DNA of 64,000 bases from Prolixibacteraceae bacterium (GTDB lineage: Bacteria > Bacteroidota > Bacteroidia > Bacteroidales > Prolixibacteraceae), in contig JAIOZY010000020.1 of the NCBI GenBank assembly GCA_021740385.1, forward strand, positions 4,493-68,492, in the 5' to 3' direction. The position numbers and the translations under genes are program-made. Position 1 is the stretch's first letter. Each line of letters starts with the position of its first letter. Shown here piece by piece: positions 17,492 through 25,937 of the stretch. The notes below the pieces were generated by a model. It had not been told where the DNA came from, did no database searches, and worked only from the letters and a program-made list of their open reading frames with translations.

Positions 17492-18622
17492 ATGCATTAT
17501 TCAAGAACGCTACTTCCTTTAATTCAGAAAAACCTCTATAAGGGAAAAGTTATCATCGTTTACGGGGCTAGGCGAACCGGGAAAACCACACTTGTTAAAG
17601 AATTGATAAAGATGAGTGAAGCAAAAGCCAGATATGTAAACTGTGATTTGCTTCAGTACAGAAAAATGATCGGAACAACCGATTTGATTCTGTTAAAAGA
17701 CTTTATTGGGAACAACAAGTTAGTTGTTTTTGACGAAGCTCAACAAATTGAAAATATTGGTTTGACGTTAAAAATTTTTGCCGATAATTTCCCTGATGTG
17801 CAAATAATTGCCACCGGATCGTCGAGTTTCGAATTGTTTAATCAAGTATCGGAACCCCTTACCGGGCGTTCGAGAAAATATCAGTTAATGCCCATTTCTA
17901 TTGAAGAACTTCATGGCGTTAATGATTTAGTAGCCATAAAATCAGCAATTTCGCAGTATCTGAAATATGGTTTATATCCACAAGTCCTTAATGCTTCTGG
18001 CGATGAGCGGACAGAAGAGATCAATGAAATCACATCGAATTATTTATTTCGGGATCTGTTAAAATTCGAAAACATAAAAAAACCCGATTTAATTCTTGAT
18101 TTGGTAAGGGCAATTGCCCTTCAGTTAGGCAGTGAATGTTCATATAACGAATTGGCTCAGTTAACCAACACAAATGTTCATACCGTAAAAAGGTACATTG
18201 AGTTACTCGAAAAATCTTTTGTGTTGTTTCGGCTCAGGTCATTTAGCCGGAATATCAGAAAGGAGATTAATAAAAGTCAGAAAATTTATTTTTATGATGT
18301 GGGTATCCGTAATTCAATCGTTCAGAATTTTAATGACACCTTTTTTCGGAACGATATCGGCGGATTGTGGGAAAATTTTTGTGTTGCTGAAAGGATTAAG
18401 TATAATGAAAATAACCGAAGGTTTGTAAACCATTATTTCTGGAGGACATACGACCAAAAAGAGATTGATTACATTGAAGAAAAGGACGGTTTATTAACCT
18501 GCTTTGAATTTAAATTCAGCTCCAAAAAACAGCAAAAAATACCCTGGGAATTTCAAAAAGCATATCCGAATTCGGTTTTTAAAACCATTACCCCCGAAAA
18601 CTTTTACGATTTAATAAGCTAA
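17492..18622 (+). CDS. AAA-type ATPase of the AAA_14/DUF4143 family
   Basis: Walker A GARRTGKTT, Walker B VVFDEAQ. The C-terminal region is typical of DUF4143 ATP-binding proteins. Confidence 0.75.
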   Translation: MHYSRTLLPLIQKNLYKGKVIIVYGARRTGKTTLVKELIKMSEAKARYVNCDLLQYRKMIGTTDLILLKDFIGNNKLVVFDEAQQIENIGLTLKIFADNFPDVQIIATGSSSFELFNQVSEPLTGRSRKYQLMPISIEELHGVNDLVAIKSAISQYLKYGLYPQVLNASGDERTEEINEITSNYLFRDLLKFENIKKPDLILDLVRAIALQLGSECSYNELAQLTNTNVHTVKRYIELLEKSFVLFRLRSFSRNIRKEINKSQKIYFYDVGIRNSIVQNFNDTFFRNDIGGLWENFCVAERIKYNENNRRFVNHYFWRTYDQKEIDYIEEKDGLLTCFEFKFSSKKQQKIPWEFQKAYPNSVFKTITPENFYDLIS

Positions 18623-18627
18623 TATTT

Positions 18628-19620
18628 ATGAAGTGGAAAACGATTAAGCGGTTTATACCCGATGGATTCATAATAGGAATCCTCACCATGATCCTTCTGG
18701 CTTACCTGTTTCCCGGGGTAGGGAAAGCGGGCAGCGCAGTTGAATTAAAAACCGTGATCAGGTATGGCATTATGCTGCTTTTCTTTTTTTACGGGTTGAG
18801 GTTAAGCCCCGAAAAGTTGAAAAGCGACCTTAAAAACTGGAAAATGCACCTCACAATCCAGTCGATCACTTTTTTATTATTTCCCATGCTGGTGCTAATA
18901 TCATACCCTTTTTTCAGGCATTCCGACTATTTTCAACTCTGGCTGGCCGTGTTTTTCCTGTCGGCTTTGCCCGGTACCGTTTCATCGTCGGTTGTAATGG
19001 TGTCCATTGCACGGGGAAACATTGGGGGGTCCATTTTTAATGCCAGCATTTCGGGCATTATTGGCATTGTGCTCACCCCGCTTTGGATGGGTTTTTTTCT
19101 CGATGCTTCAACTGAAAGTTTCGATTTTGCCCAAACCATTATCGATCTTGTTATCCAGATATTGCTGCCGCTTTCAGTTGGTTTGATTTTACAACGTTTT
19201 TTTGGGAAATGGGCCAACCGGAACAAGCGTTATTTAAGCCTCTTCGATAAAAGTGTGATCCTTACCATTGTTTACCGCAGTTTTGGTGATTCATTCAGCA
19301 ACGGTATTTTTTCCACTCTCCCAAACTGGACATTGCTGATTTTGGGAGCTGTTGTTATTGGATTGTTTTTCACCGTTTTTGGAATATCCGGAGTAATTTC
19401 ACGCTGGTTGCGTTTTAACCGCGAGGACCGGATCACGGTAATCTTTAACGGGTCGAAAAAGTCGTTGGTACACGGCTCGGTAATGGCCAGTGTTTTATTT
19501 GCCGGCAGCGCGGCAGGCAGCCTGTTCCTTGTTCCCATTATGATATACCATGCTTTTCAATTGTTTTATATCAGCCTGGTAGCACGGAGGTATGGGAAGG
19601 AGGAGCGGTCTCAATCATAA
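18628..19620 (+). CDS. Bile acid:sodium symporter family (SBF-like/YfeH-type) membrane transporter
   Basis: 330 aa, ~9-10 TM segments. N-terminal DGFIIGIL...FFFYGLRLSPEKL is typical of the SBF-like family. Confidence 0.7.
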   Translation: MKWKTIKRFIPDGFIIGILTMILLAYLFPGVGKAGSAVELKTVIRYGIMLLFFFYGLRLSPEKLKSDLKNWKMHLTIQSITFLLFPMLVLISYPFFRHSDYFQLWLAVFFLSALPGTVSSSVVMVSIARGNIGGSIFNASISGIIGIVLTPLWMGFFLDASTESFDFAQTIIDLVIQILLPLSVGLILQRFFGKWANRNKRYLSLFDKSVILTIVYRSFGDSFSNGIFSTLPNWTLLILGAVVIGLFFTVFGISGVISRWLRFNREDRITVIFNGSKKSLVHGSVMASVLFAGSAAGSLFLVPIMIYHAFQLFYISLVARRYGKEERSQS

Positions 19621-19621
19621 G

Positions 19622-19661
19622 GGCTTTAAAGTGCAGAAAGAGACATTGTTGTTTTAAAGCC
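19622..19661. terminator. Bidirectional hairpin between convergent genes
   Basis: GGCTTTAAA (19622-19630) pairs with TTTAAAGCC (19653-19661), between the + strand transporter stop and the - strand DUF5131 stop. Confidence 0.5.
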
Positions 19662-19675
19662 AAGAATTAGGAGAT

Positions 19676-20392
19676 TTAAATCAAATGTGGCATTTCATCG
19701 TAAATTTTTCCTTTTAGTAAACGTCCGTTTTTCTTTTTATTTGTGCCTCCCCATTGTTTAAAATAAAATGCTGTTGATTGATTTTTACATTGTTGCTGAA
19801 TGTTAAGCACCCATTCTTCTTTCATTGGCCTGGGTGTGCGCCCACTTTCCCCTCCAACGATAACCCAATCAATATTTTTAAAATTAAGATTAGGAAGGTT
19901 CGTTAAAAGAGGTTCACAGCTAAGAAATTTTACTTTTGCTCCAGTTTGTCTTAAAAAATCAATTCGTTTTATAACAGAATAATCCTCAACAGTTACTCCC
20001 ATCCAAATATTGTGAGTCCAATTTAGCCATCCTTCCATGTCGTAATAATGTAAAACATCGGCACGTTTTGTAAGTATTTGGAAAACATGTTGTGGATTGT
20101 CATTCATCACACTGAAAATTTGCTGAATATATTCAATTGGAACATCCTTATGGAATAGATCACTCATAGAGTTTACAAATATCACTTTAGGTTTTTTCCA
20201 ATTGTAAGGCTCATTTAATGTTTCAGGATGAAGGGTTAGTTTGAAACCATTTTGATATTTTATTTGCCCCATGGCTTTTAGTCGTTTTGCCATTATTTCT
20301 GCATAACAAAATTTGCATCCTGATGAAATTTTTGTACATCCCGTTATTGGGTTCCATGTACTTTCTGTCCATTCAATTTTTGATTTTACCAT
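19676..20392 (-). CDS. Phage Gp37/Gp68 family protein (DUF5131), three-Cys motif
   Basis: N-terminus KIEWTESTWNPITGCTKISSGCKFCYAE, plus NSMSDLFH, FQILTKR, FLSCEPLL, WVIVGGESG and FYFKQWGG. All are hallmarks of PF07505/DUF5131. Confidence 0.85.
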   Translation of the reverse strand: MVKSKIEWTESTWNPITGCTKISSGCKFCYAEIMAKRLKAMGQIKYQNGFKLTLHPETLNEPYNWKKPKVIFVNSMSDLFHKDVPIEYIQQIFSVMNDNPQHVFQILTKRADVLHYYDMEGWLNWTHNIWMGVTVEDYSVIKRIDFLRQTGAKVKFLSCEPLLTNLPNLNFKNIDWVIVGGESGRTPRPMKEEWVLNIQQQCKNQSTAFYFKQWGGTNKKKNGRLLKGKIYDEMPHLI

Positions 20393-21295
20393 TTAAATTG
20401 TTGTAATAATTTGTTTAGCAATTTTAACTGCATTTTGATTATTTGAAGCAAAAACAAAATGAAATATTGGCACATTTTTGGAATTAATTAACTTCATTGG
20501 TTTTTCAGTTACATACTTCCAAATTGTTTTTAATTGATCTACATAGATGTTTGAAATTTTTTTAATAGGATCATTCACCTTTTTTATTATTTCTTCTTCA
20601 CCAAAAAGTGTTGAATGATTTTCTTTTTTGTAAAAGTAGTTTTTTATCTCTTCTTCGCTTAATCCAAAAAATGATGTTAGCTTTTTTATTGATTTAAGTT
20701 CGCATTTTGAATCAAGTAGTCTATTTACAATTACACCTGTTGGAATCAAAATCCAAATGTCGCTTCGTGTGTCTTTTAATGAAGCAATTGAATCCCATCT
20801 GATTTGCATTCCAAACGGATCAAGTAATACTAATGCTGCATATTTATTGGAAGATTTCTTCATGGTTTCAGATAATTTTAAAAGCCATTGATTACAATCT
20901 CCTGATTTATATTGAAACTGATTTTGATATTTTATTTGAAAAGGATCAAGTCTTGTTTTTAGTTGATTCAATGATTCTTTTTTTAGGTCAATGAAATAGT
21001 GAAAATCGAAAGAAAGATTATTCGGTAAATTAAGAACCCGTTCTGCTGCGCCTTTATATACAAATTCTTCATTTTTACTAATGAAAAGTTGCTGAAAAAC
21101 AGGAGATTCGCATTTTGTGTTTCGGTTTCCATTCCCTGCAAAACCGTCAAAATATATTGTTTTCCAATATGAATGTTTCGTCATAATTGTAAGATATGCT
21201 GAAACATATTTTGAGAAAGCATCAAGTTTTCTTTTGGTCCAGAGACCGCCCCATGAAATTGAAGGCTCTTTGATGATTTGAGAGGAATTGTTCAT
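20393..21295 (-). CDS. tcmP: Three-Cys-motif partner protein TcmP
   Basis: WGGLWTKRKLDAFSKYVSAYL...IYFDGFAGNG matches the remembered TcmP (TIGR04474) N-terminal signature. Its stop directly abuts the DUF5131 start codon (20393/20392). Confidence 0.7.
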   Translation of the reverse strand: MNNSSQIIKEPSISWGGLWTKRKLDAFSKYVSAYLTIMTKHSYWKTIYFDGFAGNGNRNTKCESPVFQQLFISKNEEFVYKGAAERVLNLPNNLSFDFHYFIDLKKESLNQLKTRLDPFQIKYQNQFQYKSGDCNQWLLKLSETMKKSSNKYAALVLLDPFGMQIRWDSIASLKDTRSDIWILIPTGVIVNRLLDSKCELKSIKKLTSFFGLSEEEIKNYFYKKENHSTLFGEEEIIKKVNDPIKKISNIYVDQLKTIWKYVTEKPMKLINSKNVPIFHFVFASNNQNAVKIAKQIITTI

Positions 21296-21409
21296 TGTTA
21301 ACTTGTTCTTTAGAATATGCTAATATACAAATTTTTAAAGTCAAAATAATGAGAAATTATATAAAAAAACACCGTTTTCGCTGCCACCTTTTTTAACTTT
21401 GGCATCATA

Positions 21410-24303: not shown

Positions 24304-24996
24304 ATGAACTCAAAATTCTTCAAGATGAATAAAATAATATTACAGATACTAACTCTCCTTTTAATAAGCGGTCAGTTGTTCGCCCAAAAAGGCAACGGGT
24401 TTAATATTTCGTTTTTTACAAAAGGGAATTTCAATGCTTATTCAACGCATTATTTTGAGCTTGATCCATATTATGAATATAACAAGAATACTGAAATGGT
24501 TGGTGGGGCATTTAATGCCTCTCTGGGGATTGCCGGGAATATCCCTTTAAATAAACCATTTGCTTTTTACCCACGACTCGGATACACTAAACTTAGGGGA
24601 TTGCAATCAACAGCTTACAGATATTATTACCCTGATAAAACTGATCCTATTAATATTATAAGTAACATTGCCGAAACACGTTTCTATTTCATTTCTGCGG
24701 ATTTTCTCCTGAAATACTATCTGCCCCTTGGAAACGTGAAAAAATATTACATATATGGCGGCCTTCGCACCGACTTCCTTTTATGGGACGATGATGTATT
24801 GTACGACAATGAGCTGATATTTGAGGGCATGAACGATTTCAATCTCAACTACGTTGGCGGACTGGGCTTTGATTTCTGGAAAGGTTTTTATTTTAACCTC
24901 GAGTATTCAAACAACATAACCAACTTTATTAAAAACGACCGCTACCTGATAAGGTATTTTTCATTATCGGCCAGTTTGGGGATTTATGTATTTTGA
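24304..24996 (+). CDS. Small outer-membrane beta-barrel (porin-family-like) protein
   Basis: Signal peptide ..LLISGQLFAQ, alternating aromatic/hydrophobic strands, terminal ..LGIYVF. Confidence 0.5.
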   Translation: MNSKFFKMNKIILQILTLLLISGQLFAQKGNGFNISFFTKGNFNAYSTHYFELDPYYEYNKNTEMVGGAFNASLGIAGNIPLNKPFAFYPRLGYTKLRGLQSTAYRYYYPDKTDPINIISNIAETRFYFISADFLLKYYLPLGNVKKYYIYGGLRTDFLLWDDDVLYDNELIFEGMNDFNLNYVGGLGFDFWKGFYFNLEYSNNITNFIKNDRYLIRYFSLSASLGIYVF

Positions 24997-25055
24997 ATTG
25001 CATAATCCGTTTTTTTCACCTATTTTTTGGCAGGATAAATGACCGTATTTTCACA

Positions 25056-25937
25056 ATGTCAAAAGCCCGTTACATACCTGCGAAAACCATACTGTCGAAG
25101 GTGAAAAACGCACCCGACAAGTGGTTTGGGATAACCTACAACATGAACCTTTACCGGGGCTGCCAGCATCAGTGCATTTATTGCGATTCGCGCAGCGAGT
25201 GTTACCAACTGGGCGATCTGGCCGATATACGCATAAAAGAGAACGCCCTTCAAATTCTTGAACGGGAACTAAAAACAAAACGCAAACGGGCAACTGTAGG
25301 ATTTGGCAGTATGAACGACCCGTATATGCCGGTTGAAGCTCAGGAACAGTTAACACGTGGCGCATTAAAACTCCTTCTCAGGTACAATTACCCGGTGCAC
25401 ATGCTTACCAAAAGTGACCTGATTTTGCGGGATATCGATCTGTTGAAACAACTTTCGGTAAAGTATGCAGCCGCTTCGTTTACAATAACAACTGCCGATG
25501 ATACTTTGGCAAAAGTAATTGAACCGGGGGCGCCGATTTCTTCAAAAAGGTTTGAAGCCATTTCTCGCCTGGCTTCCGAAGGGATATATACAGGTGTAAT
25601 GTACATGCCCTTGCTGCCATTTATTAATGATAGCTGGGAAGAGGTTGAAAAAACAATCGTGAAGGCAAAAGAAGCAGGTGCCAAATACCTGCTATTCTGG
25701 CCTGGCTTGTCGCTCCGCCAGGGATCGAGGGAGTATTTTTACAAAAAGCTCGACCAACACTTCCCCGGTAAAAAACAAAAATATATCGAAACCTTTGGAG
25801 ATAGTTATATATGCAATTCGCCCAATGCCAATGAACTTTACCGGAAAGCTACACTGCTGCAAAAAAAGATTGACCTGCCGCAAAAAATGAATTTTTTTCA
25901 GGAAGATAGAGCAGAACAATTTCGATTGGATTTTTAA
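25056..25937 (+). CDS. Radical SAM protein of the SplB/COG1533 type
   Basis: CQHQCIYC (CxxxCxxC) in the context YNMNLYRGCQHQCIYCDSR. Start moved to MSKARYIP (25056). Confidence 0.75.
   Translation: MSKARYIPAKTILSKVKNAPDKWFGITYNMNLYRGCQHQCIYCDSRSECYQLGDLADIRIKENALQILERELKTKRKRATVGFGSMNDPYMPVEAQEQLTRGALKLLLRYNYPVHMLTKSDLILRDIDLLKQLSVKYAAASFTITTADDTLAKVIEPGAPISSKRFEAISRLASEGIYTGVMYMPLLPFINDSWEEVEKTIVKAKEAGAKYLLFWPGLSLRQGSREYFYKKLDQHFPGKKQKYIETFGDSYICNSPNANELYRKATLLQKKIDLPQKMNFFQEDRAEQFRLDF

Follow-up and report, generated by a model that had tools for sequence, protein, structure and literature searches.

What does a cassette of two abutting genes, one encoding TcmP, a three-Cys-motif partner protein, and the other a DUF5131 (Gp37/Gp68) protein, do between the genes for an SBF transporter and an extracytoplasmic function (ECF) sigma factor in a Prolixibacteraceae bacterium, and how did it come to be there? 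The DNA analysed, hereafter the window, is the whole stretch of 64,000 nucleotides of contig JAIOZY010000020.1 (assembly GCA_021740385.1, positions 4,493 to 68,492). The pair is not new, as it is already catalogued as PADLOC candidate PDC-M41, and the window locus is an ordinary, solitary member of this catalogued family, both of its proteins matching the PDC-M41 models end to end. Our confidence is evenly balanced as to whether this solitary, horizontally acquired copy of the PDC-M41 cassette represents a module of two S-adenosylmethionine (SAM)-dependent proteins that would act on a nucleic-acid base and would play a role in conflict between phages and their hosts or involving mobile elements, a reading which draws on sequence comparison and structural models.

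The PDC systems go back to genes located inside the operons of BREX, DISARM and type I restriction-modification (R-M) systems, and the 145 PDC candidates are described by their authors as untested (Payne, Hughes, Fineran, Jackson 2024, bioRxiv 10.1101/2024.01.29.577857), so that filing under PDC-M41 provides a label and not a function. The gene order and type I R-M embedding of PDC-M41 and PDC-M30 are also seen in relatives of the window pair, and a second pair in the same genome is of the PDC-M30 type, but the window copy, unlike the defining cases, lies outside any defence system. As a TcmP/three-Cys pair (TIGR04474 plus PF07505) it is typical and differs in no respect, since both hidden Markov model (HMM) cut-offs are passed and both the adjacency of the genes and the Cx6Cx2C motif are present.

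The locus and its acquisition

The features of the locus are as follows.

20393..21295, minus strand: tcmP (PADLOC PDC-M41A), three-Cys-motif partner protein of 300 aa, from the open reading frame (ORF) call and HMM matches
19676..20392, minus strand: DUF5131 gene (Gp37/Gp68; PADLOC PDC-M41B/M30B), putative radical-SAM-superfamily protein of 238 aa
19608..21380, no strand: lineage-specific segment of low GC (guanine plus cytosine) content, ~1.77 kb, GC 0.304, delimited by the blastn homology break, with only the two genes and short spacers inside
21296..21409, minus strand: upstream spacer of 114 nt, 25% GC (0.254), from the sequence, with the divergent ECF sigma gene on its far side
19622..19661, no strand: inverted repeat GGCTTTAAA/TTTAAAGCC, 9 bp with a loop of 22 nt, between the convergent SBF and DUF5131 stops

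A preliminary description of this DNA had drawn attention to two abutting minus-strand genes, and the contact was confirmed: the TAA stop of tcmP (20395-20393) is followed by the ATG of the DUF5131 gene (20392-20390) with a gap of 0 nt, and the two are predicted to be co-transcribed as a unit. The same description held the pair to be more AT-rich than its flanks, and indeed the GC content of the pair is 30.7% (TcmP 28.8%, DUF5131 33.1%) as compared to 44.4% for the SBF transporter, 42.5% for the ECF sigma factor and 41.9% for the genome. At third codon positions GC falls to 0.21 for TcmP and 0.24 for DUF5131, and when the 2,736 ORFs of at least 200 aa in the genome are ranked by GC content, TcmP belongs to the bottom 1% and DUF5131 to the bottom 4%.

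Forty relatives, two of them of the same genus (G001 and G002), were searched in six frames for TcmP, and it was found in none. Nucleotide homology (blastn) to G002 stops at 19607 and restarts at 21381, while that to G001 stops at 19596 and restarts at 21363, that is, it is lost just before the stop codon of the SBF transporter and resumes just before the sigma factor gene; the break between 19607 and 21381 therefore delimits a lineage-specific segment of approximately 1.77 kb which contains only the pair. A clean empty site could be shown in neither G001 nor G002: in both genomes the left-hand sucCD-SBF block does not adjoin the right-hand block (ECF sigma onward), the pair thus being situated at a synteny breakpoint. 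Histidine kinase genes come after the sucC-sucD-SBF block in G001, where a PorP-like gene precedes the sigma-factor block, and in G002 it is trpS that precedes the sigma-factor block. The closest relative elsewhere, with 72% protein identity, is found in a Prolixibacteraceae metagenome-assembled genome (locus L014) where the flanking genes differ, and nucleotide similarity to the closest relatives elsewhere spans only 19689-21253, corresponding to the two ORFs. The absence of TcmP from the 40 relatives, the homology break at the edges of the pair and its outlier composition together support the earlier proposal that the window pair was horizontally acquired. No significant target-site repeats flanking the pair were found. 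A 12-nt near-repeat, TTTTAAAG(C/T)CAA, occurs on either side of the pair at 19652-19663 and 21333-21344, and is probably due to chance, as 20 comparable repeat families are present in the same AT-rich 2 kb.

Of the two elements said to bound the pair, the AT-rich spacer of 114 nt stood up to analysis and the bidirectional hairpin did not. The inverted repeat at 19622-19661 folds with -7.7 kcal/mol (z = -1.82), 11 of 200 shuffled sequences fold equally well and a T-run is absent, while a scan around the pair detected no terminator-like site; at best the repeat would be a weak terminator, and not a convincing one. On its minus strand the spacer carries TTGACTTTAAAAATTTGTATATTAGCAT some 35 nt upstream of the tcmP ATG, and a sigma-70-like TTGACT-16-TAGCAT site is located at 21344-21317, although the number of such sites is not above that in shuffles. 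The spacer is probably the pair's own promoter, predicted to be divergent from the ECF sigma gene.

A second candidate lies close by: a DUF4143/AAA_14 ATPase encoded at 17492-18622 on the plus strand, with 35% GC, matches PADLOC candidate PDC-S01 at 482 bits. It is missing between sucD and SBF in G001, and a 461-aa MCP-like gene takes its place in G002; its site represents a second variable slot, independent of that of the pair and about 1 kb away. As a component of the same system this ATPase was rejected, given that the conserved SBF gene intervenes and that it co-occurs with the pair in just one of the 80 loci surveyed below.

Pairing, mobility and restriction operons

A scan of 185,579 species genomes returned 426 confirmed matches of the window TcmP subtype, from which 80 loci were taken. 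DUF5131 is encoded 5-42 bp downstream of TcmP in all 78 evaluable loci, the contig ending at that point in the other two, and the tight coupling suspected from the window alone is thus a conserved property. When the 529 neighbouring proteins were clustered, three families were dominant, all on the same strand as the pair, namely HsdR (EcoEI_R_C/EcoAI-like) in 30 loci, HsdS in 29 and HsdM in 25. At least one of the three is encoded within five genes and on the same strand in 36 of 76 loci, which represent type I R-M operons and bear out the proposed association with defence genes. In these 36 loci hsdR is upstream in 24, of which 12 have exactly the order hsdR-tcmP-DUF5131-hsdS (R-T-D-S), seven are arranged S-T-D-(x)-R and five otherwise, with gaps that are typically -4 to 15 bp. 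Some of the other 37 loci have further neighbours of R-M or defence type (N6_Mtase, HsdS, Eco57I, RhuM, YhcG, TIR, Fic or PLD).

A tree built from concatenated TcmP and DUF5131 places the window copy in a clade of 13 members (SH-aLRT support 98), ten of which are embedded in R-M operons, and over the 67 tips the embedded or solitary state switches at least 17 times. The distances of TcmP and DUF5131 are correlated (Mantel r = 0.59; none of 999 permutations as high), and these findings indicate that the pair moves as a unit, both entering and leaving R-M operons. In 77% of pairwise comparisons inside the M41 subtype it is DUF5131 that shows the higher conservation of the two. Taken across genomes, the sequence comparisons show TcmP and DUF5131 to be an obligate, mobile and co-evolving pair which recurs inside restriction operons.

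Approximately half of the surveyed loci are without an R-M neighbour, and the window copy is one of these: no hsd gene flanks it, and only the unrelated PDC-S01 candidate is present two genes away. The genome has no HsdR of the EcoEI/EcoAI type, the usual partner family, while HsdM and HsdS genes are located on other contigs.

Elsewhere in the survey (loci L012-L091), pair-bearing type I R-M operons often contain extra cargo between hsdS and hsdM, including RhuM, a Schlafen/AlbA_2 protein with a helix-turn-helix, a YhcG/DUF1016 nuclease, PDDEXK_3 and an IS200 transposase.

The second TcmP/DUF5131 pair of this genome, of the PDC-M30 type, is located on contig C20 (locus L011, 1869-7409), where the gene order is type IIG restriction-methyltransferase (1,223 aa; REase_MTase_IIG, 818 bits), TcmP (384 aa) and DUF5131, the first two genes being joined by overlapping stop and start codons. 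This TcmP matches TIGR04474 at 129 bits and PDC-M30A at 407 bits, and displays a weak C-terminal match to GMT-wHTH, a winged helix-turn-helix (wHTH) model. Between the two copies in the genome DUF5131 is 67% identical and TcmP only 24% identical (E 0.03), an asymmetry that would fit a conserved catalytic subunit and a fast-evolving recognition subunit. In Sinorhizobium meliloti the TcmP protein SMa2243 is assigned to the same putative transcription unit as the Hna defence gene (hna) and is co-upregulated with it (PMC12445080).

Phages also carry members of these families. DUF5131 was found in 181 of 50,697 phage records, mostly of actinophages and with at most ~52% identity, while the window TcmP detects only two of the 50,697 records, at 22% identity. 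In Gordonia phage Fairfaxidum (NC_048185.1, 32933-34874) gp43, annotated as 'methyltransferase', is a TcmP (TIGR04474, 109 bits), located directly downstream of the immunity repressor gene and convergent with the DUF5131 gene gp42, and a Synechococcus phage also contains a convergent TcmP/DUF5131 pair; the phage pairs are thus convergent and not co-directional. Gordonia phage CarolAnn gp43/44 was rejected as an instance of the pair, since both proteins are RexAB-like and unrelated. The preliminary description had called the window genes phage-derived, and this part of it could not be upheld: although the family is shared with phages, the window copy has its nearest relatives (65-72% identity) among bacterial cassettes, most of which lie inside R-M operons.

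The two proteins

TcmP matches NCBIfam TIGR04474 at 130.4 bits (cut-off 53) and PADLOC PDC-M41A at 349.7 bits, as compared to only 37.6 bits for PDC-M30A, while DUF5131 matches Pfam PF07505 at 325.6 bits (threshold 28.9) over profile positions 1-243 of 243, so that both family assignments made from the sequence alone were correct. DUF5131 also matches PDC-M41B at 412.4 bits, this B model not discriminating M41 from M30, and TIGR04471 (radical SAM mobile pair protein A) with an E-value of 1.9e-26, which is under the cut-off of that model.

It had been stated that TcmP is defined only by its adjacency to the DUF5131 family, which proved too narrow, as the protein displays a class I SAM-methyltransferase fold together with conserved SAM-binding and putative catalytic motifs. 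Motif I corresponds to D50-G-F-A-G54-x-G56, the acidic residue of motif II to D103, motif III to G132-D133-x-N135 and motif IV to D159-P-F-G162. Among 114 diverse homologues (20-60% identity) D159, which belongs to 'LDPFG' at the end of β4 and occupies the motif IV position, is the sole invariant residue, while D50, F52-A-G54, G56, N135 (of 'GDAN', motif III), P160 and G162 are at least 90% conserved. In 120 close homologues D103 and D133 are likewise conserved at 90% or more, and the consensus of the diverse set has kept 'FIE', where β2 ends, as well as 'GDAN'. This is a large family: a search with the TcmP profile retrieves 2,938 clusters at 50% identity.

An AlphaFold2 model of TcmP (pLDDT 79, pTM 0.78; low confidence at residues 1-16 and 54-81) was compared by Foldseek with the PDB and BFVD, and all top matches were class I SAM methyltransferases, among them EgtD, the DUF519/RlmJ-family protein 2oo3, TYW4, TrmR, SpeE, KsgA and cap methyltransferases, with E-values as low as 5e-5 and TM-scores of 0.3-0.4. 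A profile of the diverse TcmP homologues aligned with the RsmD-like methylase 2fhp (E 0.005) and with RlmJ/DUF519 2oo3 (E 0.64) from β2 to '…LDP', whereas searches of PDB sequences with single proteins or low-diversity profiles returned nothing meaningful. The RsmD and RlmJ families methylate exocyclic amines of nucleic-acid bases. TcmP resembles them in its class I fold, in motifs I-III and in having an Asp-Pro motif IV where β4 ends, and they supply its best profile and fold matches in the PDB; it differs in that motif IV reads DPFG (DQFG in the PDC-M30A paralogue) in place of DPP(Y/F) or more generally the canonical (D/N)PP(Y/F/W), in the low TM-scores, in a 28-residue low-confidence insert after the G-loop, and in an extra C-terminal β/α region ending in a conserved H-x-V-F-A-S-N. 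These sequence and model comparisons show TcmP to be a protein of class I SAM-methyltransferase fold and RsmD/RlmJ type, in which motifs I-III for SAM binding are accompanied by D-P-F-G as motif IV. A close relationship to the type I methylase HsdM was considered and rejected, the alignment against HsdM (hhalign) having covered motif I only, with an E-value of 0.06.

The three-Cys motif that had been noticed in DUF5131 is GCTKISSGCKFCYAE, equivalent to C19-x6-C26-x2-C29, and this Cx6Cx2C arrangement does not vary among 120 close homologues or among 64 diverse ones, the latter from two clades with ~50% identity. C202, E160 and G180-G-E-S-G184 are also invariant, and C159 is nearly so. The AlphaFold2 model (pLDDT 78) consists of six β/α units, with the Cys loop at low confidence, and in Foldseek searches TIM barrels scored best, the radical-SAM epimerase EpeE appearing at rank 43. 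When a diverse DUF5131 profile was aligned by hhalign with 13 radical-SAM proteins of the Rv2578c/PA0069 type, the alignment extended over 238 columns (E 2.5e-4, probability 43%) and superposed C19…C26xxC29 onto CxxxCxxC with a three-residue insertion, and in addition the strand-end motifs 'SMSDLFH' and 'LTKR' onto 'G-x-x-D-x-Y' and 'TKS'. A DUF5131 alignment of low diversity (Neff 1.5), when compared with the one Rv2578c-type protein of the window, gave no significant result, nor did the diverse profile match anything in the PDB. In the RadicalSAM.org classification DUF5131 is a radical-SAM subgroup (megacluster 5-2) whose neighbours are the MJ0683-like proteins (5-1) and spore photoproduct lyase (SPL) (5-3) (PMC9477430).

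As compared to the group formed by SPL, Rv2578c, PA0069 and MJ0683, DUF5131 shares the β/α barrel, the alignment over 238 columns and the superposed Cys triad, but has Cx6Cx2C and not the canonical CxxxCxxC, measures 238 aa in place of about 300-340, and has an obligate partner of methyltransferase fold. Alignments and model thus lend moderate support to the view that DUF5131 belongs to the radical-SAM superfamily as a compact β/α-barrel protein, kin to the Rv2578c/PA0069/SPL group.

The window itself encodes, at 24993-25937 on the plus strand, a radical-SAM protein with a canonical CxxxCxxC motif and of the Rv2578c/PA0069 ('DNA repair photolyase') type, which was among the 13 reference proteins and is conserved in the genus, with 87% identity in G002.

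Possible function of the pair

If the two proteins work together, they may constitute a two-SAM enzyme acting on a nucleic-acid base, most likely in DNA. TcmP would bind SAM, capture a flipped base in its motif IV pocket and possibly methylate its amine, whereupon a 5'-deoxyadenosyl radical generated at a [4Fe-4S] cluster of DUF5131 would carry out a second chemical step on the base or adduct. The kinship of DUF5131 to SPL and Rv2578c and the R-M partners of the pair make DNA the probable substrate. The role of the pair would be in phage-host or mobile-element conflict, for self-marking or for defence, a context suggested by the 36 R-M loci among 76, the second pair fused to a type IIG system, the co-regulation with hna in S. 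meliloti and the phage TcmP beside an immunity repressor. Because about half of the copies are solitary and the genome is without the HsdR family that is the usual partner, the pair should act autonomously and would not need a restriction enzyme in cis.

Several points weigh against this reading. The nearest solved relatives of TcmP methylate rRNA, and the substrate could therefore be RNA; given the non-canonical DPFG/DQFG motif IV, binding by TcmP may occur without methylation; at the level of profiles the link to radical-SAM proteins has moderate strength (hhalign probability 43%), with a non-canonical cluster motif and a cluster loop of low confidence; many solitary copies lie among housekeeping genes, which would also fit a role outside defence; and no experimental test of the pair was found in the literature searched.

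The association with restriction operons would also be expected of a latent restriction-guard or abortive-infection module comparable to PrrC, in which a phage that disables the adjacent type I R-M system would trigger radical damage to host or phage nucleic acid. PrrC is encoded inside a type I R-M operon, and the slots between hsd genes that are taken by relatives of the pair are of the kind occupied by the restriction-linked genes prrC and rloC, these relatives being located between hsdR and hsdS in 31 loci with reading frames that overlap or nearly do so; moreover, the same slots house RhuM, Schlafen/AlbA_2, YhcG and PDDEXK nuclease, Fic and TIR genes. The protein families of the pair are nevertheless unrelated to PrrC and RloC, neither protein has a toxin or nuclease domain recognisable by Pfam or Foldseek, and the autonomy deduced above argues against a guard that depends on an R-M host, since the pair, unlike PrrC, is solitary in about half of the loci, the window copy included, has switched state at least 17 times and persists in a genome devoid of the partner HsdR family, all of which leads us to consider such a guard quite unlikely. 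A solitary copy of foreign composition at a synteny breakpoint and without obvious partner genes might be an inert hitch-hiker, that is, a selfish or decaying passenger that is functionless in this genome, but we regard this as highly improbable in view of two intact, full-length ORFs with all family-invariant residues present, a preserved abutting stop and start, and an AT-rich upstream spacer with promoter-like hexamers.

Two further explanations were considered. DUF5131 might reverse a lesion or adduct by radical chemistry in the manner of SPL, with TcmP recognising the lesion and the pair having no part in phage defence. The near-invariant extra Cys, C159, is situated at the mouth of the barrel, and in SPL such a Cys serves as the H-atom donor; DUF5131 aligns with Rv2578c/PA0069-type proteins, two neighbours are Peptidase_S24 (LexA/UmuD-like) proteins, and DUF5131 clusters next to SPL and the MJ0683/'DNA repair photolyase' group (PMC9477430). 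Against this stand the sporadic distribution (none of 40 relatives), the foreign composition, the embedding in R-M operons and phage lysogeny modules and the fast divergence of one partner (24% identity for TcmP against 67% for DUF5131), features that are those of conflict genes and not of housekeeping repair, and a repair function is accordingly judged distinctly improbable. An RNA-modifying pair, in turn, would target rRNA or tRNA with a logic like that of RlmN/Cfr, or of RsmD/RlmJ with an added radical step, and by altering translation could still serve defence or resistance. The only profile-level PDB matches of TcmP, the RsmD-like 2fhp and RlmJ/DUF519 2oo3, and the presence of KsgA, TYW4, TrmR and cap methyltransferases among its fold matches, favour such a target, but RNA and DNA substrates cannot be told apart from a class I methyltransferase fold, the radical-SAM partner has its neighbours in the SPL/Rv2578c group, which acts on DNA, the R-M enzymes that are the genomic partners are directed at DNA and the PDC-M30A paralogue has a weak wHTH, for which reasons RNA modification also appears unlikely.

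Returning to the two-SAM module in phage-host or mobile-element conflict, it is a speculative and rather unlikely suggestion that the pair constitutes a new kind of radical enzyme on DNA, directed to a sequence or a base, in which a base-flipping subunit of RsmD/RlmJ type would present a minimal radical-SAM subunit related to SPL with a base or with the N-methyl adduct of that base, resulting in a novel DNA modification or in DNA breakage by hydrogen abstraction. If true, this would represent an oxygen-independent 'radical restriction/modification' that dispenses with a conventional nuclease, and it would explain how the cassette can work both inside R-M operons and alone. The significance of the family lies in its size, its presence in bacteria and phages and its recurrence in restriction operons, and a radical-SAM enzyme with an obligate partner of methyltransferase fold points to a nucleic-acid chemistry outside what is known from R-M, Dnd, Dpd and BREX systems. 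To this the window locus adds little, being one more instance and a solitary one; its use is that the cassette has here remained intact, together with an upstream region of its own and in the absence of a restriction partner, in a compact 1.7 kb suited to testing.

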